A DNA stretch of 64,000 nucleotides from Negativicutes bacterium (GTDB lineage: Bacteria; Bacillota; Negativicutes; UBA1444): assembly GCA_963665275.2 (NCBI GenBank), contig CAXXIN010000015.1, forward strand, positions 32,001-96,000. Reading direction: 5' to 3'. The notes beneath the pieces are model-generated. The model saw nothing but the letters and a program-made list of their open reading frames with translations. It was not told where the DNA came from and made no database searches. Shown one piece after another: positions 4,822 through 21,992 of the stretch (position 1 is its first letter; the number at the start of each line of letters is the position of its first letter). The position numbers were made by a program, and so were the translations under genes.

Positions 4822-5700
4822 TCACGTCCCGCAGCAACTTTCTCGATATGTTATTTGATATCTGAGCGAGCGCACATAGGAAACCGTTTCGTCGGCAGGA
4901 TAAGCGATGGCGGCAAATCCGGCATCCACAGCCAGAAGTTCAACCGCACGGGCGTAATTCCCTGGCGGGCGCGCACAGCCCAGCATAAGCGGCAAATCAG
5001 GCAACTTCTCTCTGGCAACTGTGAACAAATTTTTGATTTCCAGCGGATCAGGCGGTGCCACCGCCTGCATCTTCGTCCCTGCCAACGGTTGCAATACTAC
5101 GAATATCAGACAGGATGCGCCTTCGGCGGCCACCATATCAATTGCCGCGTATTCGCCGCGTAATTCGCCATAATGCAGTCCTGCGACGATATGCGGCATC
5201 GCCCGCAACCCGGCCTTGCGCGCAGTTCGAAGACTACGGAGATAATGCTCTGGAGTCCGTTCCAAATGATACACTCTCCTGATGGTTTCAGGATCGCCGA
5301 TCAAATCGAGGGCCACTCCAGCGACGTTTGCCTCTGCCAACACCATAGCGGTCTTTTCATCAAGGAGGCCCGGATGAACGATGACCGACAGACCCATTTT
5401 TACAACTTCCTGTAAGGCAGCACCAAACGGAACAAGTGGCACGCTGCCATCACAGCAGGCGCCACCGCTGATCAGCACACCACGGCAGCCTTCCCTGCAA
5501 AGTTTTTCGGCCACCTGCACGAGCGCCGCAGGCGTCGGCGCTGCCAGCATATTCCGTAGCAACTGCCCCTCGCAATGGTCGCAAAGACAGCCGCACTCAG
5601 TTCCCGAAATGCTGATATTGGCGAACGAAGACGGTTTATTGACATAAAATTCGTTGTCATAGTGGCGCGAACCCGGAACATAAAAAGTGAATTCAGTCAC
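4822..5700 (-). CDS. lipS1: Radical SAM lipoyl synthase subunit LipS1
   Basis: ISISGTECGCLCDHC (CxxxCxxC), GCAR and a C-terminal CC (ESCCGT) match the GC(M/A)R and CC motifs described for LipS1; adjacent to a LipS2-like gene. Confidence 0.85.
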   Translation of the reverse strand: MTEFTFYVPGSRHYDNEFYVNKPSSFANISISGTECGCLCDHCEGQLLRNMLAAPTPAALVQVAEKLCREGCRGVLISGGACCDGSVPLVPFGAALQEVVKMGLSVIVHPGLLDEKTAMVLAEANVAGVALDLIGDPETIRRVYHLERTPEHYLRSLRTARKAGLRAMPHIVAGLHYGELRGEYAAIDMVAAEGASCLIFVVLQPLAGTKMQAVAPPDPLEIKNLFTVAREKLPDLPLMLGCARPPGNYARAVELLAVDAGFAAIAYPADETVSYVRSLRYQITYRESCCGT

Positions 5701-6763
5701 GCCATATTTCTCCTTTGATCGTTATCAAATCGTTCTCATCCGGCCAAAACGGATAGTTACGTAGAACAGGGCCGGGCCGTTCATTGCCAAAAGGTCGGTT
5801 GCAGGCCAAACACCCCTGTCGGTCAGGACAGCCGGATGTCATGAACGGTTTTCCTGCTGCCAGATCCTCGCCCAACAAATCCTGCAACGGCTGACCAAAG
5901 CCTGTGATTCTGCCTTTGTCGAACGTTATCGCATCGCACCCAATCTGGCAATTATTCAGCAAGTGCGCGGCCAGTTGAATCCTTCGATAATGGCTGTTAG
6001 AAGGGGGTAAACGGTTCGATAGAGCACTTCCGGGTTCCGGGCAGAAGGAAAACAAATGGGCCTGCGCGCCGCAGTATCTGGCTTGGGCAATGGCCTGAAC
6101 CATTTCCTGCTCGGTTTCTCCCAAGCCGACGATGAAATGAACGCTGACATGATCGCGTCCAAACACCCTCACCGCACTTTCCAGCGCCATCCAATATTTT
6201 TCCCAGCGATGGGGACCGCCCACCGTCATTCCGCGCATCGCCTCAAATAGTTCGGGGGTCGCCGCATCGACAGCGACTCCCACCCAATCCGCACCCGCTT
6301 CTTTTAGCTTGCGGAAAAACGCCTCGGTATCGTGCACCAAAGTCGGCGATACCAATACACTGACCGGCGCTCCGACAGGAGAGGCGAGCCGTCGCACCAT
6401 CTCCACGCAATCAGTTTCCGCCCGCGGATGCGTGATCATTGACACGCAAATGCGACCGATTCTTTTCACCCCAGCTGCGGCTTCCCGCGGTGGATGAGTC
6501 AGAATCTCAACTATTTTCGCCAACTCATATACTGGCCATTTTACTCGGATGAAGGTAGAGTTTTCCGGCTGGGCCTGCCTTTCCCTGGCCAATCCGCAAT
6601 AGCTGCAGTTGGCCTTACATCCGTCCGGATAGGTCATCAGCAAATTCAAACTTCCGGGATAAGCGTTGCGATAAAAGCTTCCCCGCTCCAACCCGAGCGC
6701 CATTGCACCAGCCAAGCTGGTCTGCACGAAATCAGGACTTTCGATTACATGTGACGATTGCAC
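5693..6763 (-). CDS. lipS2: Radical SAM lipoyl synthase subunit LipS2
   Basis: LMTY..GCKANCSYC and RVKWP; C-terminal TSGCP...CNRP matches the TxGCP..C(N/D)RP motif of LipS2. Confidence 0.85.
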   Translation of the reverse strand: MQSSHVIESPDFVQTSLAGAMALGLERGSFYRNAYPGSLNLLMTYPDGCKANCSYCGLARERQAQPENSTFIRVKWPVYELAKIVEILTHPPREAAAGVKRIGRICVSMITHPRAETDCVEMVRRLASPVGAPVSVLVSPTLVHDTEAFFRKLKEAGADWVGVAVDAATPELFEAMRGMTVGGPHRWEKYWMALESAVRVFGRDHVSVHFIVGLGETEQEMVQAIAQARYCGAQAHLFSFCPEPGSALSNRLPPSNSHYRRIQLAAHLLNNCQIGCDAITFDKGRITGFGQPLQDLLGEDLAAGKPFMTSGCPDRQGCLACNRPFGNERPGPVLRNYPFWPDENDLITIKGEIWRD

Positions 6764-6801
6764 GAACTAGCCCCCTATCTATCATCAGCATACTGCGAAA
6801 T

Positions 6802-7878
6802 CTACTTCGCATAATACTCGGGAAAAGCGACCCAACTGCGGCGGATAAGTCCGGAAAATTTATGATGGTCATCTGTCCATCCCCGCTCACGGGCAAGGAA
6901 GCGGCTATGCGCCCTGGCAAGAGATTCTCCGTATTCCGCCTTCAAGATTCGGGTGTAATTTTCAGCCAGCGCAGAACCGCCAGTCTTCTTTTGATCCAGA
7001 ACAGCTTCTGCGGCTAGCTTTCCACTGACAACTGCGGCAGCAATTCCGGCCCCGGTGATCGGATGTGTGCATCCTGCAGCGTCTCCGGCCAGCAACATAT
7101 GATCGCCTGCCAGATGGTCAACCAGGCCTGCCGCCGGAATCAATCCCCCTGTTGTCCTGTGTACTGCGCTGTCTCGCACAACTTGTGCAGAGACTAACTC
7201 ACGGCAAAACTTTCCGAGCAGTTCCTGCAGAGATCCGTTCAAAGATGCATGAACTGCCATACCAACATTGGCCGAAGCCCCTTTGGGAAAAACCCAGGCA
7301 TAGCCACCATAATAGGTCGGATCGAAGTAGATGTGCGCAAATTCCAGTGGTCCCGCCAGGCCGATCTCATATTGCATAGCCACACAACTCTCAGTTGGAT
7401 GGTTGCCCAGTTTCAGGCTGATTACCGAGCGCGGCCCGTCGCAGCCAACGATATAATCGGCAGTTACGGTCGCATGGCCGGCGCCATTTTGCAATGTAAC
7501 CGTTCGCGAACCTGCATCTGTCACCCGTACTCCGGTCATGAGGCGTACCCCGGCGCGGACTGCTTCATCGGCCAGATGGTTCTCCCAGGAACCCCGATTG
7601 ATCGTAAAGCCAGGCGCCCGCGTTACTTGAACGAGTTCACCCTGAATAAACGTTTTAATTCCCTTCAATGTCTGCGCCACATCAGCGTCTCGTAGCGAGA
7701 CATATTTTTTCAGGATACTCGGTACATACTCTGCGCACTGGATGTTTTCACCAACTGATTGCTGCTGCTCGATCAGCAGTACTTTCAACCCTGCCTCGGC
7801 TAACCGTCGCGCAGCACAGCTTCCTGCAGGACCCGCTCCCACAACTGCCGCATCATAATCCGTCGGCACAGTTCTCAT
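6802..7878 (-). CDS. lipT: FAD-dependent oxidoreductase, geranylgeranyl-reductase family (LipT-like)
   Basis: VVGAGPAGS, GCDGPRS, YAWVFPKG and GDAAG...PITGAGI motifs; lies between a ligase and lipS2, as in lipS1/lipS2/lipT clusters; GGGAGG RBS before ATG 7878. Confidence 0.75.
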   Translation of the reverse strand: MRTVPTDYDAAVVGAGPAGSCAARRLAEAGLKVLLIEQQQSVGENIQCAEYVPSILKKYVSLRDADVAQTLKGIKTFIQGELVQVTRAPGFTINRGSWENHLADEAVRAGVRLMTGVRVTDAGSRTVTLQNGAGHATVTADYIVGCDGPRSVISLKLGNHPTESCVAMQYEIGLAGPLEFAHIYFDPTYYGGYAWVFPKGASANVGMAVHASLNGSLQELLGKFCRELVSAQVVRDSAVHRTTGGLIPAAGLVDHLAGDHMLLAGDAAGCTHPITGAGIAAAVVSGKLAAEAVLDQKKTGGSALAENYTRILKAEYGESLARAHSRFLARERGWTDDHHKFSGLIRRSWVAFPEYYAK

Positions 7879-9001
7879 AATATCCTCCCTGCCCATCGCG
7901 GATGCTCGCCTTGCCATTGCTTGATCGTTCCACCGCCAGCAGCATGACCGCGATAAAATCCTCGGCGGTAACTCCCAAGATGTGAACGTCTCCCTTTGCA
8001 AAAAAAGCACGGATTCTCTCACTAATTTGATTACCACAGACAGGAGTGTTTTTCAGCACCGTTTCCAGGTCGTTGACAGCCCTGGTCGGATAAGCGAAAA
8101 AATCGCCGCTAATCATAACGTATTTAATGACGCGAACGTCTTCGTCCAATCTCATTTGAACCCGGATCAGCCCGCCAGGCGCCTTGTAATTGACTGTACT
8201 ATCCATCGTGTTGACGACTCCGCTACTTTTACCGTACACCCAGTCATCCGATTGGAAATACGGCAGAGTTTCTGCCAACATGGATTCCTCCTGCGCCGTC
8301 AGCTTTCCGCGAACCATTTCATAACCCAGTGTTTCTGCAAACCCATTTAAGATCTCCTGCTTGATTGTGTCGAGTGGGGGCGCCGTGCCCAGCTGTTCGC
8401 TGATGGAAGTGACCCGTCCGCGCATGGAGGAAATCGCCTTATCGCTAATTTTTTCTATCGGGAATCGCAGCACCCGCAACATTTCATCCACATCAAAATC
8501 CACCAACAGGCTGCATTGAAAGACAAAAGACCCTTCCAACTCCGTCCCGCCTGTTCCCGAAATCTTTCTGCCGTTGATTTCGATATCGTTCACCGGCCGA
8601 TAGGCTGCACGCATCCCCAACCTGTTCAGACCTGCCACCATTGCCTCACAGAGCACTCTGTACATGCCTTCTACCCTCCGAGGAATACCTGGAGTGTTTT
8701 TTGCCGCATACAATTCCCAGCCAAGTTCCAGCGGACCCCAATACAAATTGCCTCCACCCGTGATCCGGCGATTGATGTCGATGCCCTTCTCCTGGCAATA
8801 TGGCACATTTACTTCCAAAAATACATTTTGGTGGAGTCCGACCAAAGCGCAGGGTTTGAACTGCAAAAACCGGAAGGTGTTGGGGATTAGCCCGCGGCTG
8901 TGAGCGTTCACGATCACCTGATCCAATGCCATATGTTCCGCCGCAGTGCGTGGCGGTGAATCCAGAACTCTTAACTTCTTGCCACTCCCGACGTCAAGCA
9001 T
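7853..9001 (-). CDS. Lipoate:protein ligase, fused catalytic + accessory domain (sLpl(AB)-like)
   Basis: MALDQ, RRITGGG, NDIEINGRKISGTG, and a C-terminal accessory domain YKAPGGLIRV...ISGDFFAYP. Confidence 0.85.
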   Translation of the reverse strand: MLDVGSGKKLRVLDSPPRTAAEHMALDQVIVNAHSRGLIPNTFRFLQFKPCALVGLHQNVFLEVNVPYCQEKGIDINRRITGGGNLYWGPLELGWELYAAKNTPGIPRRVEGMYRVLCEAMVAGLNRLGMRAAYRPVNDIEINGRKISGTGGTELEGSFVFQCSLLVDFDVDEMLRVLRFPIEKISDKAISSMRGRVTSISEQLGTAPPLDTIKQEILNGFAETLGYEMVRGKLTAQEESMLAETLPYFQSDDWVYGKSSGVVNTMDSTVNYKAPGGLIRVQMRLDEDVRVIKYVMISGDFFAYPTRAVNDLETVLKNTPVCGNQISERIRAFFAKGDVHILGVTAEDFIAVMLLAVERSSNGKASIRDGQGGYYENCADGL

Positions 9002-9413
9002 CCCGCTTGAGCTCCTCCGTAATCAGGGCAACAATAGAACCAGAATTCATTAATCCTTCCAGCTCTTGCGGTCTAGTCAATTCAATCTCAACAAACCAGC
9101 ATGCATAAGGATTTTGGCTGATCAGGCCAGGAGTGGATATCACAGCTTCGTTGACCTTTGTTATCTTGCCGCTCACCGGTGCATAAACCCGCCCCACCCA
9201 TTTCCCCGCCTCCAGCGATCCGCAACTGTCGCCGGCGCTAATATTCGATTCAATACCCGGCAAGGCCAGATACAGTACATCTCCTGTCACATCCAGCCCA
9301 TACGGGGTCAGACCGAACTGGACTTTTTCACCATCCTTACGGATCCATTGATAGTGGGTATCGTAATACAAATCATCGGGAAAGTTATATTTGTCGATAT
9401 TCATCTGCCACAC
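8994..9413 (-). CDS. GcvH-family lipoyl carrier protein (LbpA-like, KWVG type)
   Basis: FPDDLYY..HYQW, lipoyl-Lys context LEAGKWVGRVYAPVSG, NPY..W. Confidence 0.85.
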   Translation of the reverse strand: MWQMNIDKYNFPDDLYYDTHYQWIRKDGEKVQFGLTPYGLDVTGDVLYLALPGIESNISAGDSCGSLEAGKWVGRVYAPVSGKITKVNEAVISTPGLISQNPYACWFVEIELTRPQELEGLMNSGSIVALITEELKRDA

Positions 9414-9425
9414 CTCACCCTGTTA

Positions 9426-10595
9426 TTACCCTTCCACCGCGCGTAGCAGCAATTCGGCCACATCGATCACTTCCAACGGCAATTTTTCTGTGCGAGCAGC
9501 CTTCTCCAGCATCTGTTCACACTGCTGGCAGGCTGAGACCACGATGCTCGCCCCTGTTGCAGCCGCTTCCCGAATTCGCCTGCGAGCGATCGCTTCCGCG
9601 AGCGCCGCGTCGACGCTCTGCAGATTACCGCCTCCGCCGCAGCAGGTAGATTCCGCACCAGACGTGGCCATTTCCACGAACGTGATTCCTGGAATGCTGC
9701 GAATAACCTCTCGGGGAGACTCGAACACGCCTCCGTTGCGACCCAGATCACAAGGATCGTGATAAGTGACCGTTTCCTCCAATTCATTCGGGACCAGCTT
9801 GCCTTCACGGATCAGTCCGGCCAGATATTCCATGGCATGAACTACCTGAAACCCAAGTTCTTCGCCTAGAATTCCGGGATAGACGTGCGTCCACGTATGA
9901 TAGCAGGATGAGCAGCCTGTCACCAACGTTTTAGCTCCTGTTGCTCGCACAGCTTCCACATTGTGCCTTGCATATTCAATAATTTCTCCCGCATGCCCGG
10001 CGGCTGCCAGAGGAAAACCGCAGCACCATTCCTCAGCACCCAGAGTGGTGTAATTCACACCCGCTTTTTCCAGAAGTTGAACTATGGCCAGCGGGATTTG
10101 TGCTGCGCGTGGAAAGAAGGAAGATACACAGCCAACAAAATATACTACTGCCGCGTCTTCCGCCCGATCCAGATTTTCCGGAACCTCATCGAGATCTTCT
10201 GCCCATTCAAGGCGATCTGCATTGGGGAAAGTCGAGATATTTCGTCTGTTTTTCAAATTTTCCGCGAGAGCGTTGTAGGCGTCAGGGGCTTTGCCGGCCG
10301 CGACCAGTTCGGCCCGCAAATCTTTCCAAAAGGACTGCAAATCGATGCGGGCCGCACAGTTCTTCGTACAAGCGCCGCACATCGTGCACTGGCTGATCCG
10401 CTTGGCGTACTCAGGCCCAATTTCCGTCTTGCATTTCAGGGCAAAGATTTCTCTCGCCAAAGATATTTTGGCTCGCGGCGATGCCGATTCCCAACCGATT
10501 TCTTTAAAAACCGGACACTCAGAACGACAATTGCCACACCGTCCGCAAATCAAGGATTCCTCTGTCAGATTTTTGTAGAAACTATCCGAACTCAT
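9426..10595 (-). CDS. Fe-S oxidoreductase with two [4Fe-4S] motifs and two CCG domains (HdrD/GlcF family)
   Basis: CGRCGNCRSECP and CTMCGACTKNC; CCG domains YFVGC...WCCG...GCSSC and YHDPC...TCCGGGG...SACQQC; ATGA overlap with the upstream gene. Confidence 0.88.
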   Translation of the reverse strand: MSSDSFYKNLTEESLICGRCGNCRSECPVFKEIGWESASPRAKISLAREIFALKCKTEIGPEYAKRISQCTMCGACTKNCAARIDLQSFWKDLRAELVAAGKAPDAYNALAENLKNRRNISTFPNADRLEWAEDLDEVPENLDRAEDAAVVYFVGCVSSFFPRAAQIPLAIVQLLEKAGVNYTTLGAEEWCCGFPLAAAGHAGEIIEYARHNVEAVRATGAKTLVTGCSSCYHTWTHVYPGILGEELGFQVVHAMEYLAGLIREGKLVPNELEETVTYHDPCDLGRNGGVFESPREVIRSIPGITFVEMATSGAESTCCGGGGNLQSVDAALAEAIARRRIREAAATGASIVVSACQQCEQMLEKAARTEKLPLEVIDVAELLLRAVEG

Positions 10596-12055
10596 TTCTG
10601 CAATCCCCCTGTTCTCCCGCGATATATTGCTCTTGTTGCGGCCAGAACCTCCATCCCCAGGCCGAAAAACACTGGATTCAACAGGAAGGGAGCTTTGTAG
10701 AGTTTGCCGGGATTCATAATATTGCATGGATCCAATCGGGCTTTCCGTTTTCTAAGCTCGTCCAACTCCGCCTGACTATGGAGCCTATTCAGGTATGGTG
10801 TGTTCCAAAGGCCCACGCCATATGGCACACCACCATATTTCTCCCCAATATCCTGCAGTTTCTTCGTAAAAGCCAACCCTTGCAAAAATCCGGCCCTGTC
10901 CCTTTCATCCGTATGATATGCGGTCATCACCATGAGATGATCCGTGGTTTCTACATGAGAGTAGCTTATCAGCCCCAAACGTGTGTCGAGGTCATACCGT
11001 GCCACAGAATCGAGATATGCGGCTAGTCCCTTGATGGGCAACCAGATCTCCGCTCCGATCATCGACGGCCCTTCCCGTTTCAATACGAATGAAAAGAAAC
11101 GATGCTCCCATTCGTGTTGTGCTTCTTCTTCCCCTAAATCCCAGCCTCCAGTCGCTTGCAGACAGTCTCTGAATTCCCTGGCAGCTCTTTCAGTCTCTGC
11201 AACCGTGCCATCCGCATCGAAAGCAATCGTGAAAGACCGGGTGCTTTTTTCGCTCCCCAACCCCGCGCGATAGCGTTCGGCATTACATCCCGGGTCTGAA
11301 AAATGCAGATTGAACGGTTTGTCGGCCAGCTTGACAGCCTTTTCGATAAAAAGCTGTGCGTTAGCAGCATCACTGAACGCCGCCAATCCATGCCATTCAG
11401 ATTCAGGACGGGGACGCACCTGCAATTCAACTTCCGTGATGATACCGAGAGTTCCTTCGGAGGCAGCAATCCATGTCAAGGATGGATCACTGGTCCGGGT
11501 CAGTTCCCTTACCTGACCGTCCGGCAAGACAATTCGGGCCGACAGAATCTGATCAATCAAGGGTCCATATTTGAGACTGCCGATCCCATAGCCCAGCATC
11601 GCCAGCCAGCCGCCGACCGTAGCACTCCGCGCGCTGCTCGGATAGGATCGGATGGCCAGACCATGACGGTTCAGTTCACTTTCCAGCGCCCACCAGGTGA
11701 TTCCTGCCTGTATCCTGACAATGTGTTTCTCCGCATCGATTTGAATAATTTCGTTTAATCCATTCAGATCCAATAATATCCCTTTGTTCATGCAAACTGA
11801 ATTGAAGAAAGCGGTCGACCCGCCAGCACGAGGTGTCAGAGGAATCTGCCCGTCCGCTGCTATTTTTACTATCGATGCTACCTCGTCAGTGGTTTGCGGC
11901 CGAATTACGATGTCAGGCAACGTATTGCCAAAAAACAGAACCAAAAAATCCGGCACCGGTGCAACGTCCCGTTCGTAAAATTCTCGTTCAAAACGGTCCA
12001 CCGTGGCGCGATCGCCAAACATCGTCTGCAAATTATTACATACTTCTGGTTTCAT
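10592..12055 (-). CDS. FAD-binding oxidoreductase (GlcD/FAD_binding_4 family), non-canonical C-terminus
   Basis: P..VIRP, PRAGGS, YPSSARSATVGGW, SEGTLGIITE and LDP.NIMNPGKL motifs. Confidence 0.85.
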   Translation of the reverse strand: MKPEVCNNLQTMFGDRATVDRFEREFYERDVAPVPDFLVLFFGNTLPDIVIRPQTTDEVASIVKIAADGQIPLTPRAGGSTAFFNSVCMNKGILLDLNGLNEIIQIDAEKHIVRIQAGITWWALESELNRHGLAIRSYPSSARSATVGGWLAMLGYGIGSLKYGPLIDQILSARIVLPDGQVRELTRTSDPSLTWIAASEGTLGIITEVELQVRPRPESEWHGLAAFSDAANAQLFIEKAVKLADKPFNLHFSDPGCNAERYRAGLGSEKSTRSFTIAFDADGTVAETERAAREFRDCLQATGGWDLGEEEAQHEWEHRFFSFVLKREGPSMIGAEIWLPIKGLAAYLDSVARYDLDTRLGLISYSHVETTDHLMVMTAYHTDERDRAGFLQGLAFTKKLQDIGEKYGGVPYGVGLWNTPYLNRLHSQAELDELRKRKARLDPCNIMNPGKLYKAPFLLNPVFFGLGMEVLAATRAIYRGRTGGLQK

Positions 12056-12095: not shown

Positions 12096-12512
12096 TCACG
12101 GTTTTGCATGTTTAGCGGCTTCTTCGGCAATGAATTTCTCCACTTCCGGTCCATGCAGCAATTTGGAGAGACCACCTGCCAGATCGCCAGGCGTCATCAC
12201 ACAAATCCAGCCTGTTCCATAGGAATCGCTGTTCAAAAGTTGCGGAGTGCCGGGCAAAGCCATATTAACTTCCAAGACTTTCCCGGTCATTGGAACCTGG
12301 ATTTTGCCCGCCCATTTTCCCGACTGAATGGAACTCAAGGTTGCACCCTCCACCAGCTCCTTCCCTGCGCGGGGAATGCGGATGAACGTGATTTCACCGG
12401 CCAACTGCTGCATGAAATCGGTTACGCCGATACGGATATTGGCTCCCTCCACCTTCACCCATGCGTGATCTCGGGTATAGTATAAGTCTTGTGGAATGTT
12501 GTACTGAGCCAT
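12096..12512 (-). CDS. Second GcvH-family lipoyl carrier protein (LbpA-like, KWAG type)
   Basis: IPQDLYYTRDHAWV, IGVTDF, IQSGKWAGKI.PMTG, N.DSYGTGWI. Confidence 0.85.
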   Translation of the reverse strand: MAQYNIPQDLYYTRDHAWVKVEGANIRIGVTDFMQQLAGEITFIRIPRAGKELVEGATLSSIQSGKWAGKIQVPMTGKVLEVNMALPGTPQLLNSDSYGTGWICVMTPGDLAGGLSKLLHGPEVEKFIAEEAAKHAKP

Positions 12513-14680: not shown

Positions 14681-15008
14681 CCAGAGCCTTCATTACGCTT
14701 GTCGCCATATAGGCCATGGCTGGCGAACCGCCAAATGCGACGGCAACCGACGCGGCTTCCAGGATCTCTTCCCGGCTGGCGCCTTCAGCCAGGGCATTTT
14801 TAATGTGAAGGTTGATACAGTATTCGCACCTTACTGTTAGAGCAATACCGAGGCCAATCAGTTCCTTGTATTTGCGTTCGAGTTCTCCTTCCACATAGGC
14901 TGCCTGGTCTGTTTGCACAAAGGCCGCCATCAACTCCGGGCATTCCTCCTGCAGTTTTCCCATGCCTTCCTGCAGTTCATCCATCAATTCCAAGCTATCT
15001 GCTGCCAT
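14667..15008 (-). CDS. Carboxymuconolactone decarboxylase / AhpD-like protein
   Basis: KELIGLGIA...RCEYCI..H...GAS.EEI.E (CxxC...H AhpD core). Confidence 0.85.
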
Positions 15009-15065: not shown

Positions 15066-16277
15066 TTAAATAAATATCTTATGCGGCTGTTCGATCAGTT
15101 TAATCAAAATCGCCAGGAATTCGGCCGCCGGGGCGCCGTCGATGATCCTGTGGTCAAAGGCAAAAGACAGTCCCATCATCGGCCGGATAACAATGGCATC
15201 CCCGACGACCGCAGGAATTCTCACGGTTCGTCCTACACCCAGGATGGCTGATTCCGGCTGGTTTATAATCGGCGTAAAATAATCGACCGAGCCATAACCG
15301 CCCAGATTGGTGATAGTAAAGGTGCCCCCTGTCATTTCCGAAGCGTCGATCTTGTTTTTGCGGGCACGTTTGGCAAAATCACGAACCTCACCGGAAACTT
15401 CATCCAGGCTTTTCTGGTCGGCATTGTGGACCACCGGTACTACAAGCCCGTTCGGAATGGCGACCGCCACGCCTATATTGATATCTTTCAGTACTTTTAT
15501 TTCGTCACCGCTCAGAGTTACATTCACTTTGGGATATTTGACCAGAGCCTTAGCGACCGCTTTAATCAGCAGATCCGTGACCGAAACTTTTTGAGTCTCC
15601 TTCAGATCCGCATTGATCGTCGTCCTTAGCGCCAAAAGACCCGTCATATCCACACTGACAAAATGAGTGACCTTTGCCGCCAAAGCCCAACTTTGGGCCA
15701 TGTTTTCGCCGATAACCTGCCGCATTCCTTCATACGGAATCGTCTCCCAAACCGGGCGTGAATCCGCCGGCGCCGGAGGATTGGCTATAAAAGCTTCCAC
15801 ATCTTCCCTGGTGATGCGTCCCTCGGGGCCGGTACCGGTGATCAACGCAAAATCCGCCACGTTGTTTTCCTGCGCCAATTTGCGGGCCGCCGGCGAAATT
15901 TTGACACCATCCCTGCCTGCCGTCCTGTCTGCCGTCCTGTCTGCTTGAATAGAAGTCGCCGTTACCGCCGCCGGACCGGCTGCATTTACTGGAGCTGCCG
16001 CCGCGCCCGCTTCGGCCAGCACCGCACTGATGTCTTCGCCTGCCGCACCTATGACGCCGAGCAACGCCCCTATCGGCAGCTTCGCTTTCTTTTCGGCAAC
16101 AATTTTCAGCAGCACTCCATCTGCCGGAGCCTCAAGCACATTCGCAATTTTATCAGTCATGATCTCCAGAAGCGCCTCGCCTTTTTTGACCGCGTCTCCC
16201 TCATTTTTTCGCCATTTACCGACAATGCCGACTTTCATGGAAAGTCCCATCTTGGGCATTTTTACTTGGGTTGCCAT
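15066..16277 (-). CDS. acoC: Dihydrolipoamide acetyltransferase E2 of the acetoin dehydrogenase complex
   Basis: Lipoyl domain (MPKMG...MTDKIA), subunit-binding domain (SPAARKLA...GTGPEGRIT.EDV) and catalytic DHRIIDGA. Confidence 0.92.
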   Translation of the reverse strand: MATQVKMPKMGLSMKVGIVGKWRKNEGDAVKKGEALLEIMTDKIANVLEAPADGVLLKIVAEKKAKLPIGALLGVIGAAGEDISAVLAEAGAAAAPVNAAGPAAVTATSIQADRTADRTAGRDGVKISPAARKLAQENNVADFALITGTGPEGRITREDVEAFIANPPAPADSRPVWETIPYEGMRQVIGENMAQSWALAAKVTHFVSVDMTGLLALRTTINADLKETQKVSVTDLLIKAVAKALVKYPKVNVTLSGDEIKVLKDINIGVAVAIPNGLVVPVVHNADQKSLDEVSGEVRDFAKRARKNKIDASEMTGGTFTITNLGGYGSVDYFTPIINQPESAILGVGRTVRIPAVVGDAIVIRPMMGLSFAFDHRIIDGAPAAEFLAILIKLIEQPHKIFI

Positions 16278-16292: not shown

Positions 16293-17303
16293 CTAGCCTG
16301 CAACATTACGCATATTACAGCTATATCCTTTTGCGACCGCAGCGCGCAACGTTTCTTCCACGTCCACTACTTTCGGTCCATCAAATGTAAGTTGGATCTG
16401 CGCCCTGTCATTTTCTCCGATTTCCACTTCACGCTCGCCGTCCAGAGCGATCACACAAGGCGCCACGTTCACTTCGACCACCCCACCTATCGGAAGGGGT
16501 TTATAATTCCTGATTTGTACCATTTCAATCAGCCCCGGCGCGATCGGTACCCGTACCTGAATATCGCCTTCGCCGATGTCGAGAACCATCCCGTGAAAAT
16601 CACGGGCCGTTATTGGCGCCAAATTGCCAACAATGGCCGAAATCCCTATATTATGTGCTTCTCCCCGAGTCACAGCGATCTGTTTGATCCGTTTCACATC
16701 CCAAATTGCTCGCGAGCCAATGAAATTATCCTTCAAAACAACCGCATCCACCAAGGCAATATCCACGGGGATTCCATTCTTATAGATCACTAGTTTTTTG
16801 CTGGGGTTAACCATAGGTGGACCGGCTACGATACCCTTTGCGATGACGCCGGCGGCCAGGCCGGCTATGGACCCCTCAATCATGCCGGGAAATACATTGT
16901 TGGTCCCGGTGGAAATGGGAAGAATCGGCACATTGCCGCAACCTTTGGCCACCAGGCGATTGGTTCCGTCACCTCCCAGCGTGACAATGCAGTCCACTCC
17001 CGACGCAGCCATAGCTTCGGCGGCGTTGAAGGAGTCGATCTGTGTTGCGCTCAGGCAGATGTCAGTCGGAATATATTCCATATCCGGACGGTGCCTGCTG
17101 TCGATCTGTTCAGCTGCAGCCAGGACAATTCCATAGTAATCAGGCATATAGACAAGCTCCTTGATCCCAACGGATGCCAGGCTCAAGATCAGGCGGCGAA
17201 CAATATTCGCTTTTTCCTGATTGTCAAAGATCGTTCCATATGCCACCAGTCGCCGGATATCCTTGCCTGATGCCGGGTTGGCGATGATACCAACTATTCC
17301 CAT
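16293..17303 (-). CDS. acoX: Acetoin catabolism protein X (ATP-NAD kinase family)
   Basis: GIIANPASGKDIRRLVA, LGGDGTNR, STGTNNVFP and ALDGERE; located within the aco operon. Confidence 0.88.
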   Translation of the reverse strand: MGIVGIIANPASGKDIRRLVAYGTIFDNQEKANIVRRLILSLASVGIKELVYMPDYYGIVLAAAEQIDSRHRPDMEYIPTDICLSATQIDSFNAAEAMAASGVDCIVTLGGDGTNRLVAKGCGNVPILPISTGTNNVFPGMIEGSIAGLAAGVIAKGIVAGPPMVNPSKKLVIYKNGIPVDIALVDAVVLKDNFIGSRAIWDVKRIKQIAVTRGEAHNIGISAIVGNLAPITARDFHGMVLDIGEGDIQVRVPIAPGLIEMVQIRNYKPLPIGGVVEVNVAPCVIALDGEREVEIGENDRAQIQLTFDGPKVVDVEETLRAAVAKGYSCNMRNVAG

Positions 17304-17329: not shown

Positions 17330-18298
17330 TTAAAATAAGCTTTTGACTGCCGCAATAATCTGTTCTTCGCTCGGGATGACCGCTTTTTCCAGAATAGGCG
17401 CGAACGGAATCGGCGTATACGGCATCGCTACGCGCTTGATCGGTGCATCCAGAAGATCGAAGCCTTCTTCAGAAACCATCGCCGCAATTTCTCCGCCATA
17501 TCCGCCAATTTTCACTGCTTCATGAACGATCACCAGCCGACCGGTTTTCCCCACAGAGGTCAGAATCGCCTCTTTATCAAGGGGAACCAGTGTGCGAGGA
17601 TCGAGTACTTCTACAGAAATTCCTTCTTTTTCCAAGACCTCAGCGGCTGCCAGCGCCTTGTGCACCATCCAGGACCAGGCAACGATGGTAACGTCTTTGC
17701 CGGCCTTTTTGATGTCGGCTTTGCCCAGCGGAACTAAATATTCGCCCTCTGGAACCTCGCCCTCAAGGCCCAGCAACTGTTTATGCTCCAGATACACGAC
17801 CGGATTGTCATCGGCGATGGCAGCCATCATCAAGCCTTTAGCATCCGCCGCGGTTGAGGGCATAACGGTTTTAACCCCTGGGATATGGGTAAACCAAGCT
17901 TCCATGCACTGCGAATGTTGTGCGGCTGCGGACGAGCCGGCGCCGCAGGCAGCGCGGATAACCATGGGAACTTTGGCCTTGCCGCCGAACATATACCGCA
18001 TCTTTGCAGCTTGGTTGAAGAGTTCATCCATACAGACTCCCATGAAATCGACGAACATGATTTCTGCGATCGGCCGCAAACCGGTGGCAGCAGCCCCCAC
18101 CGCGGCGCCAACAATCGCCGTCTCGGTAATCGGCGTGTCAATTACCCGCCCGGGAAATTCTTTATAGAGTTCGCCGGTCACGCCGAAGCAGCCGCCAAAC
18201 TTACCAACATCTTCGCCCCAAATAAATACGTTAGGGTCTTTTTTCATGGCCACACGCATTCCGTCACGAATGCCTTCAAGATATGTCATTTTCGTCAT
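17330..18298 (-). CDS. acoB: TPP-dependent acetoin dehydrogenase E1 beta subunit
   Basis: GEDVG..GG.FGVT, DTPITE, NQAAKMRYMFGG and AAQHSQ. Confidence 0.92.
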   Translation of the reverse strand: MTKMTYLEGIRDGMRVAMKKDPNVFIWGEDVGKFGGCFGVTGELYKEFPGRVIDTPITETAIVGAAVGAAATGLRPIAEIMFVDFMGVCMDELFNQAAKMRYMFGGKAKVPMVIRAACGAGSSAAAQHSQCMEAWFTHIPGVKTVMPSTAADAKGLMMAAIADDNPVVYLEHKQLLGLEGEVPEGEYLVPLGKADIKKAGKDVTIVAWSWMVHKALAAAEVLEKEGISVEVLDPRTLVPLDKEAILTSVGKTGRLVIVHEAVKIGGYGGEIAAMVSEEGFDLLDAPIKRVAMPYTPIPFAPILEKAVIPSEEQIIAAVKSLF

Positions 18299-18343
18299 TA
18301 TTATCCATCCTTTCCCGATTTGGATTCCTCATTACCAAAAAGA

Positions 18344-19306
18344 TCAACCAGCGTAGACATCCGCCAAAACTTCATCGACATTCGCGTCCGGACTGTTTGT
18401 GGCGAAAACGATCGCCTCATTGATCTTTCCTGCCACTTTGGCCGTAATGGCATCCAACTCAGCTTGTTGAGCATATTTCAGTTCCACGAGCTTATTTCCC
18501 AGTCGAGGAATCGGATCTTTTTTCAGCCAAGCATCCTGTTCGGCTGAATCTTTGTAAGCCCCGGGATCTCCTTCAAAATGGCCGCGCCATCTCCAAGTTT
18601 TGCATTCGATCAGGCTGGGACCATCACCTCTTCTGGCTCTGGCAACCGCTTCTTCGGCCGCTTCATGGACCGCAATCACATCGTTGCCGTCTACTGTAAC
18701 GCCTGGCATCCCATACGCGCTAGCCCGTTCAGAAACGTCGACGACCTTCATGTGGTCACGTTGACAGTTGGAAATCCCATAGAGGTTATTCTCGCATACA
18801 TAAACTACCGGAAGTTTCCAAATAGAAGCCATATTCAGGGACTCATGAAAAGTGCCGCGATTCGAAGCGCCGTCGCCAAAGAAGCACACAACCACTGCAT
18901 CAGACTTTCTGTATTTGCAGGCAAAAGCTGCGCCTGTGGCGATTGGCTGTCCTGCGCCTACGATTCCGTTAGCTCCCAAGATCCCCAGGTCGACGTCGGC
19001 AATATGCATTGACCCGCCTTTGCCTTTGCAATAGCCAGTCGCTTTACCGAACAACTCAGCCATCATCAAATCCACTTTGCCGCCTTTTGCGATCAGATGA
19101 CCATGTCCACGGTGCGTGCTAGTGATGAAATCTTTGCTCGTCAGGCCTGACAATACTCCGGTCGCCACCGCTTCTTCTCCGAGATACAGGTGTACGAATC
19201 CAGGCAGTTTGTTGTCGGCGAACAATTCCACGGCTTTGCTTTCAAAAGCCCGGATTGTCGACATTGTTTCATAAAAACCAAGCAGCTTTTCCTTTGTTAG
19301 TTCCAT
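18344..19306 (-). CDS. acoA: TPP-dependent acetoin dehydrogenase E1 alpha subunit
   Basis: PGFVHLY.GEEA, STHRGHGH, GKGGSMH, TPP motif GDGASN...ENN and GHFEGD. Confidence 0.92.
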   Translation of the reverse strand: MELTKEKLLGFYETMSTIRAFESKAVELFADNKLPGFVHLYLGEEAVATGVLSGLTSKDFITSTHRGHGHLIAKGGKVDLMMAELFGKATGYCKGKGGSMHIADVDLGILGANGIVGAGQPIATGAAFACKYRKSDAVVVCFFGDGASNRGTFHESLNMASIWKLPVVYVCENNLYGISNCQRDHMKVVDVSERASAYGMPGVTVDGNDVIAVHEAAEEAVARARRGDGPSLIECKTWRWRGHFEGDPGAYKDSAEQDAWLKKDPIPRLGNKLVELKYAQQAELDAITAKVAGKINEAIVFATNSPDANVDEVLADVYAG

Positions 19307-19383
19307 ACTAATTCCCTCCTTCTTGAATTGGGCGCAATGGACAAAATGCTTCCTGAGTTCCCGCTCGACCTTTTTTTCAAAAT

Positions 19384-19761
19384 TTATTTCCGGGACTTCA
19401 CCTCCTGTTCAACATCGACATAAACAGTAAGAGCAGCCACAGCAATCACGATCGTATCGCCGGAACCAAGTTCAGGCAGATCCAGACCGCGAACCGCCAG
19501 GCCGCCTGCAACAACTTCCAGCTCCGTCGTCCCAAACGGAATCATTTCCAGCACTTCGGAGTTGCGGATCTGTTCCGGGTGAGGCACGCCCAGCTTGACT
19601 GCGACGTGCATCCTGTGGGGGCTGTCAACTCCAAGAATATCGAATAAGCCGCAAAGGCAACTATGAGAAATCGCGTCTTTTACCGCCCGTTGAGCGGCTT
19701 TGGTTACATCTCCGCCATGAAGGTCTGCACCGGCGCCAATTTCGACGATATATCGTTTCAT
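19384..19761 (-). CDS. Lin0512 family protein
   Basis: MKRYIVEIG.G.DLHG.D.TKAA.RAVKDAI, PFG and V.GGL pattern; first gene after the sigma54 promoter. Confidence 0.75.
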   Translation of the reverse strand: MKRYIVEIGAGADLHGGDVTKAAQRAVKDAISHSCLCGLFDILGVDSPHRMHVAVKLGVPHPEQIRNSEVLEMIPFGTTELEVVAGGLAVRGLDLPELGSGDTIVIAVAALTVYVDVEQEVKSRK

Positions 19762-19817
19762 CCCCACTTTAGTACACCTCACTAGCTAAATTTTTAAATG
19801 CACATATAGTTTCCTAA

Positions 19818-19834
19818 TGCATAGGACGTGCCAA
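19818..19834 (-). promoter_or_regulatory. Sigma54 -24/-12 promoter of the aco/lipoate operon
   Basis: Minus strand TTGGCACGTCCTATGCA = GG-N10-GC consensus, downstream of a sigma54 activator gene. Confidence 0.88.
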
Positions 19835-19864
19835 ATAAAAAAAACCACCTGTTTTCAGGTGGTT
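19835..19864 (-). terminator. Intrinsic terminator of acoR
   Basis: Minus strand AACCACCTG-AAAA-CAGGTGGTT followed by a long T run. Confidence 0.8.
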
Positions 19865-19899
19865 GGACACTTTAGCGGCACAAACAACATTTGTCTGAT

Positions 19900-19947
19900 T
19901 GTAGCCGCGCGATACAATATCGTAGCGTTATGTAGCGCAGCGATACA
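19900..19947. promoter_or_regulatory. Two putative AcoR upstream activator sites
   Basis: TGTAGC-N5-GATACA at 19900-19916 and 19931-19947 (31-bp spacing), upstream of the sigma54 promoter. Confidence 0.65.
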
Positions 19948-19967
19948 ATATTTTCGTTATACCATAA

Positions 19968-21992
19968 TCACAGCTTGAAATTGTCGATCCCGTATCGCTG
20001 TAACTTGCGATAAATGGTAGTCCTTGCAACTCCAAGCTTCTTGGCAACGCGGCTGATATTGCCGCCATACTGATTCAAAAAAGCAACAATTTCCGCCTGT
20101 TCCGTTTGCTCCATTGCCAATATGCGCTGCTGTTTAACAGAATCCCCCAAAACAACCTGGGGAAATGGCTGAGGTTCAAAGCAGTCCGCATGAGCCTGAG
20201 GGTTATATATTTCGGGGGGTAAGTGCCGCAGCATGATGGTCTGCTCTTCAGAGATACTGACCACACGTTCCGCTACATTATACAATTCTCGCACATTGCC
20301 GGGCCAATTGTAGCTGCGCAGACAATCCAGCACTTTTTCATCGACTGAATATTTGTGGCCCCTTTCTTTGCCTATCTTATCTATAATATGCTGAAACAAT
20401 ACGATAATATCATTGCCGCGTTCTCGCAGGGGCGGCACTGTAATTGAAATAACATTCAACCTGTAATAAAGGTCCTGCCGGAAAGCGCCTTTTTCCACTT
20501 CTTTCAGCAGCGTTTTATTGGTAGCGCAGATTACGCGCACGTCCGCCGGAATGACCCGTTCGCCGCCAATACGAACTAGTTTTTTCTCCTGTAGTACCCG
20601 TAGCAGTGCGACCTGTTGTTCCAACGGCATATCAGCAATTTCATCCAAAAACAAAGTGCCGCCTGCAGCGAGCTCGAATTTTCCAGGTCTCCCTCCACGT
20701 TTAGCGCCGGTAAAGGCTCCTTCCTCATATCCGAATAGTTCGCTGCTGATCAGTTCCCGCGGTATCGCTCCACAGTTCACCGCAATAAACGGGCCATCGC
20801 TTCGTTCGCTGTGATGGTGAATGGCTTGCGCAAATAATTCTTTGCCTGTACCGCTTTCGCCTTGCAACAAGACATTGGAAAAACTCGTAGCCGCAAGTGA
20901 AGCGATCCTGACAGATTCCAATAATTTGGCACTATTGCCGATAATATCACCAAATTCGAAATTCGTATAATGACCGCTAAAGTGATTTACCAATCGTCTT
21001 ACTTGTTTAATTGGCCGCAGAATGATGACTCCGCCGTTTATTTTTCCCCGTTCATCAGTCAGCGGTTCTCCGGAGACCAAGCAATGGCTGGTGCCGTTCT
21101 TGATCGGCACCATGACCTCCACATCAGAATATGGCTGTTTGTTGTCCAACATGGTTCGCGTAAAATGGGCGGTATCGCCAAAAATCCCTTCGATGGGACG
21201 ACCGACTACATCTTTGCTCGAACTCCCGAGTATCTGTTTGACTACAATATTAACTTCATTAACAATTCCGCGATTGTCAATCAGAACAACCCCATCGGAC
21301 ATCGTGTTGAAGATACTGGTTAACCTTTTGTTAGCCAACGTAAGTTCATTGTTTTTTTGCTGAATCCTAAGTTGCATGGAAACAGCTTCAGCAGCGGCGA
21401 CAACCATCCCCAGCGTATGAGAATAGGTCGATTGAGCCGGTCCCGAAATATCCAGCACAGCCATAATTTTCCCATTTTGATCGGTTATAGGCGCCGCCGA
21501 ACACGTCCAGTGATGGTGACGCAGACAAAAATGCTCACAGCCTGATACTTGCATCGGCAGCCCCGTTGACAAGGAAGTGCTGATCGCATTCGTTCCAACA
21601 TGGTCTTCATGCCAGTTCGCGCCTGGTAAAAAGGACAATTCCCGCGCATTTTGAATGCGATCAGGATCACCAAAGATCTCTAGAACATACCCCTGCACAT
21701 CCGTAAGAACTACTACAAAACTGGAACCCCGGAAAAACTGATAAAGATTCTGCATGAAGGGTGTGGCTGCACGAATAATAACTTCATTTTTTTCCAGCAG
21801 TTGCTTCAGTTCATGCTGTTCGAGTACTATCCGGCCTCTGCCATCAGCAGGATTCACTCTGGTATCTGAGCACTTCCTCCAGGATTCGACGATAGGTGAA
21901 GATATGATTCCTTGTTTTATTTCACCAGAGTTGACGAAGGTTTTCCAAGCCAACGCCTTTTGCTGTAAGGATCGTTCCCCCGTATTTTTCAT
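19968..21992 (-). CDS. acoR: Sigma54-dependent activator, AcoR family (GAF-PAS-AAA+-Fis HTH)
   Basis: GTNAI...[11 protein letters not shown] domain, [48 protein letters not shown] and a C-terminal HTH. Confidence 0.9.

Follow-up and report, generated by a model that had tools for sequence, protein, structure and literature searches.

Introduction

To our knowledge, the lipoate-dependent systems described so far are a handful: the 2-oxoacid and acetoin dehydrogenases, the glycine cleavage system, and sHdr-LbpA. In the canonical acetoin system of Pelobacter, Clostridium magnum and Bacillus, AcoA, AcoB, AcoC and the dihydrolipoamide dehydrogenase AcoL (E3) are accompanied by AcoX and the sigma54 activator AcoR. 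Here we analyze an acetoin-type operon in a stretch of 64,000 nucleotides (the window) from a Negativicutes bacterium (GenBank assembly GCA_963665275.2, contig CAXXIN010000015.1, positions 32,001 to 96,000). The operon encodes E1 and E2 components and no E3, together with two free lipoyl carriers (H1 and H2) resembling GcvH, the H protein of glycine cleavage, a GlcD-fold flavoprotein, and an iron-sulfur protein with CCG domains. An earlier note on this DNA had proposed that dihydrolipoamide on E2 may be re-oxidized through the free carriers and the flavin/CCG pair, which would make the pair a substitute for E3. Our analysis suggests that the whole is probably an undescribed lipoate-dependent redox system and not a simple E3 replacement; in our best reading of the sequences, an AhpD-like protein would couple a lipoyl-H-dependent enzyme to E2 in this E3-less operon.

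The system is best called a variant of the theme that joins an Hdr-like enzyme to lipoate-binding proteins. As in sHdr-LbpA (sHdrC1B1AHC2B2 with LbpA1/2), free GcvH-like carriers are encoded beside an HdrB-type CCG enzyme and a set of sLpl(AB), LipT and LipS1/S2 genes. The role of E3 is an open point in both systems in the portions of PMC6067878 and PMC10332631 available to us, and the former proposes that a shared E3 re-oxidizes the dihydrolipoamide of sHdr-LbpA. Unlike sHdr-LbpA, the operon lacks HdrA, separate HdrB/HdrC pairs and genes for sulfur transferases; its flavin subunit has the GlcD/VAO fold, its carriers lack the two LbpA cysteines, and its context is an acetoin-type E1-E2 operon in anaerobes instead of sulfur oxidation.

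Other described systems share parts of the operon. Like the canonical acetoin system, it has E1 alpha and beta subunits, a full E2 with a peripheral subunit-binding domain (PSBD), a gene where AcoX is expected, an activator of the sigma54 type and a lipoyl synthase, and a butanediol-type dehydrogenase is encoded nearby; unlike that system, it has an AhpD-like gene in place of AcoL/E3 and, in addition, the flavin/CCG pair, two H carriers and another pathway of lipoylation. In TfrAB of methanogens, the CCG subunit oxidizes thiols and electrons pass to a flavoprotein that reduces an organic acceptor, which is the direction our proposal needs. The architecture of subunit B, ferredoxin-type clusters plus two CCG domains, is that of the CCG protein here, whereas the flavin partner has a GlcD fold instead of a fumarate reductase fold and the thiol is presumed to be dihydrolipoamide carried on a protein. 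GlcDEF glycolate oxidase and the pairs of D-lactate dehydrogenase with an HdrD-like protein have the same two-gene architecture and folds; unlike them, the operon's pair has lost the Glu-His and metal ligands, differs in an N-terminal motif of its own and in a hydrophobic extension at the C-terminus, and is obligatorily linked to an H gene. Finally, in the mycobacterial AhpD-DlaT-Lpd relay, AhpD exchanges electrons with dihydrolipoamide on DlaT, an E2. Here too an AhpD protein of the CxxC...H type is encoded directly after a lipoylated E2, but the operon has no AhpC or Lpd, and the proposed flow runs away from E2 to other lipoyl carriers.

Results

Conservation of the H-flavoprotein-CCG trio

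Three minus-strand genes lie at the center of the system: H1 (12096-12512), the flavoprotein (10592-12055) and the CCG protein (9426-10595). The earlier note called for a neighborhood survey of the pair, and in that survey the linkage of an H gene to the flavin/CCG pair was kept across phyla. A first scan, with the CCG protein as query, one genome per species and genes labeled by BLAST, gave 50 loci in Sporomusa species, Pelosinus, Anaeroarcus, Peptococcaceae, Thermacetogeniaceae, Syntrophomonadaceae, Desulfitobacterium, Desulfosporosinus, Syntrophaceae and Smithella. A second scan, with a flavoprotein alignment, gave 78 loci: 36 new ones, which were annotated, 35 on contigs of the first scan, 6 under old identifiers, and a 1.9-kb fragment (L149) that was left out. 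In a tblastn gene table over all 86 loci of both scans, 72 have the flavoprotein and CCG genes together, and 70 of these include an H gene as well; the remaining two lie on short contigs of WOR-3. The enzyme occurs in Bacillota, Thermodesulfobacteriota, Chloroflexota and, scattered, in other phyla. The recurring order is (Lin0512)-E1a-E1b-AcoX-E2-AhpD-(LipB)-LipA-H1-FAD-CCG-(DUF6506)-transferase-H2-Lpl(AB)-(LipT)-LipS2-LipS1, where FAD stands for the flavoprotein. LipA or LipS genes are present in 61 of the 72 pair-bearing loci. A constant H gene and a usual lipoyl synthase fit an enzyme that needs its own lipoylated carrier and would also fit an accessory of lipoyl assembly.

The pair also stands in other contexts. 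On an archaeal contig the order is LipS2-LipS1-Lpl-LipT-FAD-CCG, preceded upstream by an H gene and lacking E1/E2 within 10 kb; an actinomycete contig reads H...Lpl-LipA-FAD-CCG, and one Anaerolineales contig reads GcvT-like-H-FAD-CCG. In Desulfobacterales, H proteins with a GKW motif pair with CCG proteins and no flavoprotein. A WOR-3 contig (L151:1611-9000) encodes a 1000-aa HdrA-like protein, MvhD (FlpD), an FrhB-like protein, a flavoprotein with the Pro-Tyr-Gly (PYG) motif described below, and a CCG protein; the flavin/CCG pair there stands in place of HdrBC within a bifurcation-type gene set. In type A loci of Syntrophomonas (e.g. L046:17335-20173), a ThiD/ThiE fusion and ThiC directly follow LipS1, an island that would carry the cofactor supply for both E1 (thiamine pyrophosphate) and E2/H (lipoate).

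Gene fusions join the same parts. Among the best 150 family representatives of 1.84 billion proteins, 54 have a CCG-like part behind the flavoprotein, with the full two-CCG part in about 15. One 1391-aa protein (P0005, matching the Anaerolineae locus L139) carries three H-like domains together with FAD, Fer4 and two CCG domains, a pattern that ties the H fold physically to the enzyme and does not point to lipoyl chemistry. Both Anaerolineae contigs, L138 and L139, encode three tandem H-like domains without the lipoyl lysine; L138 has an additional, lysine-bearing H protein adjoining a second CCG protein. Three flavoprotein relatives (P0070, P0098 and P0110) are fused to ferredoxin and glutamate-synthase (Glu_synthase, GXGXG) domains and reach 2526 aa.

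At the level of the class, the family is present in 21 of 401 genomes, and a single taxonomic family holds 14 of 20 carriers. In the source genus the cluster was found in 1 of 12 genomes, the source genome only. Its distribution is patchy and island-like, and the scanned parts of the window contain no mobile-element genes. A profile search returned 1318 family clusters at E <= 1e-30, a count that may include more distant relatives.

According to PMC10332631, lipS1/S2 occur in linkage with genes of canonical lipoate synthesis "in several Sporomusa species"; in the portion of it available to us, the flavin/CCG pair is not mentioned beside this linkage. Our literature search found no account of a trio of GcvH-like, GlcD-like and CCG proteins or of an E3-less acetoin operon, and the supplementary gene-cluster lists of PMC10332631 may include them.

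Active-site residues of the trio

The flavoprotein (PF01565, 128 bits; a weak PF02913 match of 52.7-55 bits) belongs to a family marked by an N-terminal motif of its own and, at the C-terminus, a hydrophobic extension of about 30 aa. Its PDB matches are LDHD, LctD and glycolate oxidase, at E values of 1e-20 to 1e-23. D-2-hydroxyacid dehydrogenases bind metal and substrate through a Glu-His pair and a His...His motif. We aligned 42 family members with seven canonical GlcD-type paralogues of the source genome, all seven of which have H-x6/7-H and S-G-E-H-G. In the family, GEHG reads G-P-Y-G in 41 of 42 members (Glu to Pro, His to Tyr), and the second metal His is retained in 17 of 42. The canonical paralogues score 180-264 bits with FAD-oxidase_C, and three of the seven adjoin CCG proteins. 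With the glcD model TIGR00387, the flavoprotein reaches 137 bits against a cut-off of 567.9. It thus has the fold of D-2-hydroxyacid dehydrogenases and lacks their catalytic and metal-binding residues and the score of glcD; since the Glu-His pair is lost in 41 of 42 members, the flavoprotein is not a plain lactate or glycolate dehydrogenase. On this point the reading of the earlier note is supported. Among the 150 representatives mentioned above, 44 have PYG, 2 have EHG and 104 have other residues at this site, and the only names that the ESM Atlas gives the family are automatic ones of the "D-lactate dehydrogenase family" kind. No strong transmembrane segment was found, the best 19-residue hydropathy being 1.49 at the flavoprotein C-terminus, so coupling to quinone stays a guess.

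The CCG protein (PF02754 twice, and Fer4_8) has two CxxCxxCxxxC ferredoxin motifs and, twice, the HdrB/HdrD-type signature CX(31-39)CCX(35-36)CXXC. In all 43 homologues aligned, both CX(34-35)CCX(35-36)CXXC signatures (C200/C235/C236/C272/C275 and C326/C362/C363/C400/C403 in long-ORF numbering) and both ferredoxin motifs are kept, and all 18 cysteines are invariant. The gene most likely starts at M45 (nucleotide 10595) of a long open reading frame (ORF) that extends to 10727, directly after the flavoprotein stop; 37 of 43 homologues start no more than two residues from M45. The best NCBIfam match is TfrB (NF004898, 170.8 bits over residues 59-430, below the cut-off of 385), and the CCG protein works like TfrB at most and is not a TfrB member. 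A profile of its family finds HdrB chains at E of about 4e-11, with the top PDB match being 9ojn_A (E 1.5e-51, profile positions 71-387), a chain that unlike the CCG protein is far longer (1042 aa), has extra N- and C-terminal regions and is not known to use lipoyl proteins. By these features the CCG protein looks like a thiol/disulfide enzyme, though not uniquely so.

H1 carries its lipoyl lysine in QSGKWAG (PF01597, 109 bits; NF002270, 115.9 bits against a cut-off of 117; TIGR00527, 99.3 bits against 115.85). H2 (8994-9413, minus strand) carries it in EAGKWVG (PF01597, 102 bits; TIGR00527, 94.3 bits against 115.85). The two are 27% identical, and their lysines, within (Q/E)(S/A)GKW(A/V)G, align with that of the genome's own GcvH, which has ESVKA; in operons of the Chloroflexota type, the H protein motif is EAGKYVG. 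The lysine of H1, K66, is invariant in all 28 H1 sequences. Both carriers have the GCV_H fold and the lysine of GcvH, without its equivalog score or the company of GcvT and GcvP.

With LbpA, H1 and H2 share the lipoyl lysine and the linkage to sLpl(AB)-LipS1-LipS2-LipT (window 4822-9001), a linkage also seen in most type A loci. LbpA proteins have two strictly conserved cysteines, N- and C-terminal, according to the portion of PMC6067878 available to us. H1 has no cysteine among its invariant or 90% conserved columns and the cysteines of H2 vary, and there is no linkage to shdr genes, as the operon has no HdrA-type gene. In what was available to us of PMC10332631 and a 2026 preprint (10.64898/2026.10.01.755906), sLpl(AB)-LipS1/S2 is the pathway described for LbpA-type carriers; in the accessible part of the preprint, sLpl(AB)-type ligases favor LbpA-type acceptors and canonical ligases favor GcvH. 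By analogy, the operon's two lipoylation lines may serve two kinds of acceptor.

Structure prediction of the flavoprotein, the CCG protein and H1 together scored low; with the partner H1 replaced the score was nil both times, and with chain 1 replaced it stayed nearly as before. The comparison speaks neither for nor against binding.

An AhpD-like gene alternates with E3

The AhpD-like protein (14667-15008, minus strand; PF02627, 77 bits; TIGR00778, 44.5 bits against a cut-off of 27.8) is a carboxymuconolactone decarboxylase-family protein of the CxxC...H type, with C61, C64 and H68 invariant in 33 of 33 sequences. Its gene immediately follows that of E2, a position that belongs to E3 in other operons. 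In the first scan, no ORF with E3 as its best match lay within 10 kb of any of the 50 loci, and Pfam searches of 57 unlabeled ORFs of these loci found transporters, short-chain dehydrogenase/reductase (SDR) genes and thiamine-biosynthesis genes, and no E3. Once the second scan was included, an E3-like gene was seen on the same strand in 14 of the 72 loci with the pair, typically in the order E1a-E1b-AcoX-E2-E3-LipB-LipA-(SDR)-FAD-CCG-H; these 14 come from Chloroflexota and from some metagenome-assembled genomes (MAGs) of Thermodesulfobacteriota and Myxococcota. Twelve of these E3-like proteins were scanned with TIGR01350, and every one matches the entire model: the scores are 375-399 bits for ten of them, 408.3 for another and 464 for the last (cut-off 408.8). 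Strict complementarity of trio and E3, which we had considered, was rejected on this count. As the trio stands beside a cis E3 in these loci, it has a function that E3 does not make redundant, and it is not simply E3's replacement.

Among the 47 loci with both the pair and E2, tblastn found E3 only in 11, AhpD only in 35, both in none and neither in one (L033), in which blastp finds AhpD. Immediately behind E2, it is the AhpD-like gene with which E3 alternates. The earlier note had put the flavin/CCG pair in E3's place, which is not supported in that form; it had listed the AhpD-like gene without using it, and it is this gene that takes the position. A quick maximum-likelihood tree, built from 68 flavoproteins, requires four or more changes of the E3 label; support is by SH-aLRT only, and related rows are not independent.

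Distribution of E3 and glycine cleavage

A tblastn search of the window with the same genome's own proteins found no E3, GcvT or GcvP, as the earlier note had it. The genome search for lpdA/acoL that the note suggested has the opposite outcome: other contigs of the source genome (3.97 Mb, 92.6% complete) encode four lipoamide dehydrogenases that exceed the TIGR01350 cut-off, so that E3 is lacking only locally and is available in trans. Three of the four lie in E1a-E1b-E2-E3 clusters of their own, two with sigma54 activators and one with LipB and LipA, and none of the three clusters has an H, flavoprotein or CCG gene. The fourth adjoins a fusion of DGC and GcvH-like domains (contig C17:143309-146243, L017 at about 7277-10250), a 297-residue frame with the lipoyl motif ESGKAV; thioredoxin-like and ArsP-permease genes lie nearby, and the group may be a thiol system that depends on lipoyl. 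Contig C4 carries a normal gcvT-H-PA-PB set.

Across the 42 carrier genomes, E3 exceeds the TIGR01350 cut-off in 36 (5 of 5, then 31 of 37, with only 32 candidates per genome scored in the latter set), and the cluster's E2 is the sole PF00198 match in 34. Read from coordinates, E3 lies within 10 kb of gcvT, mostly at 4-8 kb, in 23 of the 42. Four genomes (G007, G020, G032 and G033) have no E3, which was re-checked with a protein query, and no strong GcvT either. In G025, E3 is a 230-residue fragment only, and G018 has no GcvT and an E3 at a contig end. On these counts, E3 follows glycine cleavage and not the operon.

G007 (locus L021; the same as G254) is a 6.1-Mb genome in two contigs, with completeness 100 and contamination 10. 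All 18 cluster genes are intact, and the only E2 (PF00198) and only GCV_H matches of the genome lie in the cluster. No E3 was found, the best score being 135 bits with all 62 candidates scored. Compared with a sister genome, a 7.8-kb segment from GcvH to E3 gives way to about 0.8 kb between flanks that are 94-95% identical and on one scaffold, and the sister's gcv operon has no counterpart. The intact operon in a genome without E3 agrees with the E3-less operation proposed in the earlier note.

Two other loci place E3-family genes in settings of their own. In Syntrophomonas (L072, G003:C12:235500-248004), E3, OsmC, thioredoxin-like and GcvH-like genes cluster like a lipoyl-dependent peroxidase set. 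A 2.3-Mb Thermacetogeniaceae MAG (L070, G005:C11:18500-32891) has its only E3-family gene (504 bits) in a glutamate-synthase-like cluster with the order GXGXG, E3-like, CCG+Fer4 protein, GATase_2, Glu_synthase.

Operon layout and remaining genes

The co-oriented minus-strand run from Lin0512 to LipS1 in the earlier note is confirmed, every gene being matched in its order by Pfam and NCBIfam scans of the window ORFs. The run (all genes below are on the minus strand) opens with a Lin0512-family protein (19384-19782; PF09585, 138 bits; TIGR02058, 98 bits, over cut-off), followed by E1 alpha of the thiamine pyrophosphate-dependent acetoin/pyruvate type (18344-19306; PF00676, 302 bits; TIGR03182, 377 bits, below the cut-off of 394) and E1 beta (17330-18298; Transket_pyr and Transketolase_C; NF006667, 383 bits, over cut-off). 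The next protein has an NAD-kinase/DAGK-like fold (16293-17303; PF01513, 48.9 bits; no NCBIfam match) and is one that we call AcoX by its position in aco operons. E2 (15066-16277) has a lipoyl domain (PF00364) with the lysine motif TDK, an E3_binding domain (PF02817, the PSBD, 59.9 bits) and the catalytic acyltransferase domain (PF00198, 281 bits). With the sigma54 activator, these are the parts of the acetoin system that the operon retains, AcoL/E3 being absent.

After the AhpD-like gene come the lipoyl synthase LipA (13778-14680; NF004019, 396 bits, and TIGR00510, 367 bits, both over cut-off), a DUF6506 protein (13437-13736; PF20116, 125 bits) and a ligase or transferase, possibly LipM- or LipL-like, that consists of the LplA/LipB-family catalytic domain without a C-terminal domain (12531-13433; PF21948, 113 bits). 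Downstream of H2 lie an Lpl(AB)-type lipoate:protein ligase (7853-9001; PF21948, 153 bits, and PF10437; all NCBIfam matches below cut-off) and a LipT-like FAD oxidoreductase of the geranylgeranyl-reductase family (6802-8037; TIGR02032, 197 bits, over cut-off), whose name follows PMC10332631. The Pfam match of LipT begins near residue 60, so the overlap with the ligase gene is probably not real, and LipT probably starts near 7875. Two radical SAM proteins, putative lipoyl synthases, close the run, LipS2-like (5693-6763; best match NF053743, 224.1 bits, full length, below the cut-off of 270) and LipS1-like (4822-5700; best match NF053742, 202.5 bits, full length, below the cut-off of 230).

Upstream, on the same strand, is the gene of an AcoR-like sigma54-dependent activator (19968-21992; GAF-PAS-AAA+-HTH_8 by Pfam, with Sigma54_activat at 230 bits), for which no NCBIfam equivalog reaches its cut-off. 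Between it and Lin0512 lie two 21-nt direct repeats (ATATTGTATCGC..GCTACA) in 19900-19951 (copies at 19951-19931 and 19920-19900), read from the sequence, and a terminator-like hairpin 3' of the activator gene (19843-19864; 9-bp stem, five GC pairs, T-run). A sigma54 -24/-12-like element, TGGCACgtcctATGC, stands in this intergenic region about 40 nt upstream of Lin0512 (19819-19833); it reads TGGCAC-N5-aTGC, one mismatch from TGGCAC-N5-TTGC, which we take to be the sigma54 consensus. The repeats lie upstream of the element and are candidate binding sites of the activator. A second terminator-like hairpin is found 3' of LipS1 (4606-4624; 8-bp stem, five GC pairs, T7 run). With the element before Lin0512 and the next strong minus-strand hairpin after LipS1, a single unit of 15.2 kb and 17 genes is the natural reading, and one sigma54-driven unit is plausible. 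The sigma54 pattern occurs 73 times in the window against 75.6 expected, that is, without enrichment, so the argument for sigma54 rests on position only; for the single sigma54 promoter of the earlier note, placement of the element and hairpins speaks in favor, and the motif count adds nothing.

Beyond the terminator at 4624-4606 lies a Zn-dependent alcohol dehydrogenase gene, Tdh/butanediol-dehydrogenase-like (3473-4528, minus strand; ADH_N and ADH_zinc_N; NF003808, 379.4 bits against a cut-off of 380). Elsewhere in the window are a pyruvate:ferredoxin oxidoreductase-like ORF of 995 aa (36273-39260), a glycyl-radical enzyme (pyruvate formate-lyase-like, 789 aa) with its activase and a GntR regulator (42120-45384), and two copies of a set of DUF5058, an uncharacterized gene and an M20 peptidase (39347-41935 and 51508-57991), the second extended by amidohydrolase, class IV aminotransferase and PALP genes.

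Discussion

We favor the view, to which we give about an even chance, that H1, the flavoprotein and the CCG protein form a lipoyl-H-dependent HdrD/TfrB-like oxidoreductase that accompanies acetoin-type E1-E2 complexes. Every electron-transfer step that follows, with its direction and acceptor, is what we infer from the genes present, their motifs and conservation, the fusions and where E3 occurs. The three proteins would act as one enzyme, with electrons passing between it and the lipoyl/dihydrolipoyl group of a free GcvH-like carrier. Thiol/disulfide chemistry would take place in the CCG protein, at its non-cubane cluster sites of the HdrB type, and two ferredoxin-type clusters would link these sites to a flavin whose pocket appears no longer suited to a 2-hydroxy acid. 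The module may be a general accessory of acetoin-type E1-E2 operons, which in some lineages stands beside a normal E3.

In operons with E3, that enzyme could equilibrate the lipoyl groups of E2 and of the H protein with NAD(H). In the E3-less operon, the AhpD-like CxxC protein is the candidate connector between dihydrolipoyl-E2 and the H carriers, with the flavin/CCG pair as outlet. Electrons would pass from dihydrolipoyl-E2 by dithiol/disulfide exchange on the AhpD-like protein to lipoyl-H1 (and H2), to the CCG clusters, through the two [4Fe-4S] clusters to FAD, and on to an acceptor that may be a neutral carbonyl of the pathway, quinone or ferredoxin. An operon with such an AhpD route would not depend on an NAD-linked E3. 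LipA and the small transferase would serve E2 and possibly H1, and sLpl(AB)-LipT-LipS2-LipS1 would serve the H carriers. The proposal that E2 may be re-oxidized through free lipoyl carriers and the flavin/CCG pair has partial support, from the H linkage (70 of 72 loci) and the CCG motifs (43 of 43), and the idea of a plain E3 substitute does not have it in that form. One could envision a further step, NAD-independent and self-contained acetoin cleavage, in which electrons from E2 reach the H carriers through the AhpD relay and the TfrAB-like HdrD-flavoprotein, a new lipoate-dependent enzyme, draws on these protein-bound dithiols to reduce a small neutral carbonyl in its remodelled GlcD pocket, such as acetaldehyde released by E1; acetoin and CoA would then yield acetyl-CoA and ethanol in a redox-neutral manner without E3. 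This extension is quite a long shot.

A number of findings weigh against the reading of the trio as a lipoyl-H-dependent oxidoreductase, and against E3-less operation in particular. The three H-like domains of the 1391-aa fusion have no lipoyl lysine. LipA or LipS accompanies the pair in 61 of 72 loci, some of them without nearby E1/E2. The nearest solved CCG chain, 9ojn_A, is a 1042-aa "iron-sulfur-binding reductase". CCG proteins of this kind, such as GlcF and GlpC, also conduct electrons to quinone, and because the same architecture serves such conduits, the fold alone is no proof of disulfide chemistry. E2 still has its E3_binding domain (PF02817). Four E3 genes in the source genome, and E3 in 36 of 42 carriers and in 19 of the 20 other carriers of the class survey, mean that E3 could be supplied in trans nearly everywhere. 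Together with the PSBD and the cis E3-like gene in 14 of 72 loci, these counts speak against the E3 substitute as originally proposed. G007 is the only E3-free genome of high quality, the other three being MAGs of unknown completeness, and its lack of E3 may be a recent loss that left the operon crippled.

A first alternative, which we think unlikely, is that one of the four E3 paralogues re-oxidizes E2 in trans and that the trio serves for electron input, the role suggested for sHdr-LbpA. The flavoprotein would oxidize a small neutral substrate, which could be an alcohol, a hydroxyketone or the hydrate of an aldehyde; lipoyl-H would be reduced by the CCG protein, and E3 would pass the electrons to NAD+. 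The cis E3-like genes, the abundance of E3 in the source genome and the other carriers, and the PSBD of E2 would all be expected on this account; SDR and Zn-dependent alcohol dehydrogenase genes are interleaved in many of the loci, and re-oxidation by a shared E3 is the proposal for sHdr-LbpA itself, at least in the part of PMC6067878 at hand. However, G007 has the operon and no E3, E3 lies near gcvT in 23 of 42 genomes and is missing from four that lack a strong GcvT, as if it followed glycine cleavage, and the account leaves the AhpD-like gene in E3's slot after E2 unexplained.

Alternatively, the flavin/CCG pair could be an accessory of lipoyl assembly that delivers electrons or sulfur to LipA or LipS1/S2 or oxidizes the nascent dihydrolipoyl group, with H1 and H2 as scaffolds or relays for E2, like GcvH of Bacillus subtilis. 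As the pair is nearly always beside a lipoyl synthase gene, usually directly adjacent to LipA or LipS, such a role fits too. It would also suit the archaeal LipS2-LipS1-Lpl-LipT-FAD-CCG contig without E1/E2 within 10 kb and the actinomycete Lpl-LipA-FAD-CCG order, and AhpD-like proteins are tied to radical SAM enzymes in NCBIfam TIGR04169 (53.7 bits here, below cut-off). We nevertheless regard it as rather improbable. The E2-E3-LipB-LipA cluster on contig C16 of the source genome does without the pair, H(GKW)-CCG pairs occur without a nearby lipoyl synthase (L061, L068), the pair is linked to HdrA/MvhD in WOR-3, and the H-FAD-CCG fusion argues that H belongs to the enzyme. The LipA and sLpl(AB)-LipS1/S2 pathways, as described in the portion of PMC10332631 available to us, require no such enzyme.

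We consider it very improbable that the AhpD-like protein, the H carriers and the pair form a system for antioxidant defense or thiol repair that depends on lipoyl and is only a passenger of the operon, comparable to mycobacterial AhpD-DlaT-Lpd or lipoyl-dependent Ohr/OsmC. The invariant AhpD active-site motif would fit, as would E3 with an H gene and a thioredoxin-like gene at L017 and with OsmC, thioredoxin-like and H genes at L072, but Pfam and NCBIfam scans found no peroxiredoxin, Ohr or OsmC gene in the operon, the trio also occurs without AhpD, and the genes are in conserved, tight, predicted co-transcription with a catabolic E1-E2 under a substrate-type sigma54 activator. That the pair is an ordinary D-lactate- or glycolate-type dehydrogenase (GlcD plus GlcF) placed here by chance is scarcely credible: automatic family names and the FAD_binding_4, FAD-oxidase_C and CCG domains would allow it, but the Glu-His pair is replaced in 41 of 42 members and the metal His is not conserved, the glcD score falls far short (137 against 567.9 bits), the source genome already has three canonical GlcD+CCG pairs, and an H gene is linked in 70 of 72 loci.

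If our reading of the trio as a lipoyl-H-dependent oxidoreductase is true, it adds a lipoyl-protein-dependent Hdr-type oxidoreductase to the enzymes by which anaerobes break down carbon compounds. A reason may also emerge for the linkage of canonical with LipS1/S2 lipoylation genes in Sporomusa, which the available portion of PMC10332631 notes without an explanation. The AhpD-like proteins that adjoin E2 would gain a candidate role. The operon would, moreover, offer a testable case of a complex of the 2-oxoacid dehydrogenase type that is able to do without E3, with one complete genome that is free of E3.

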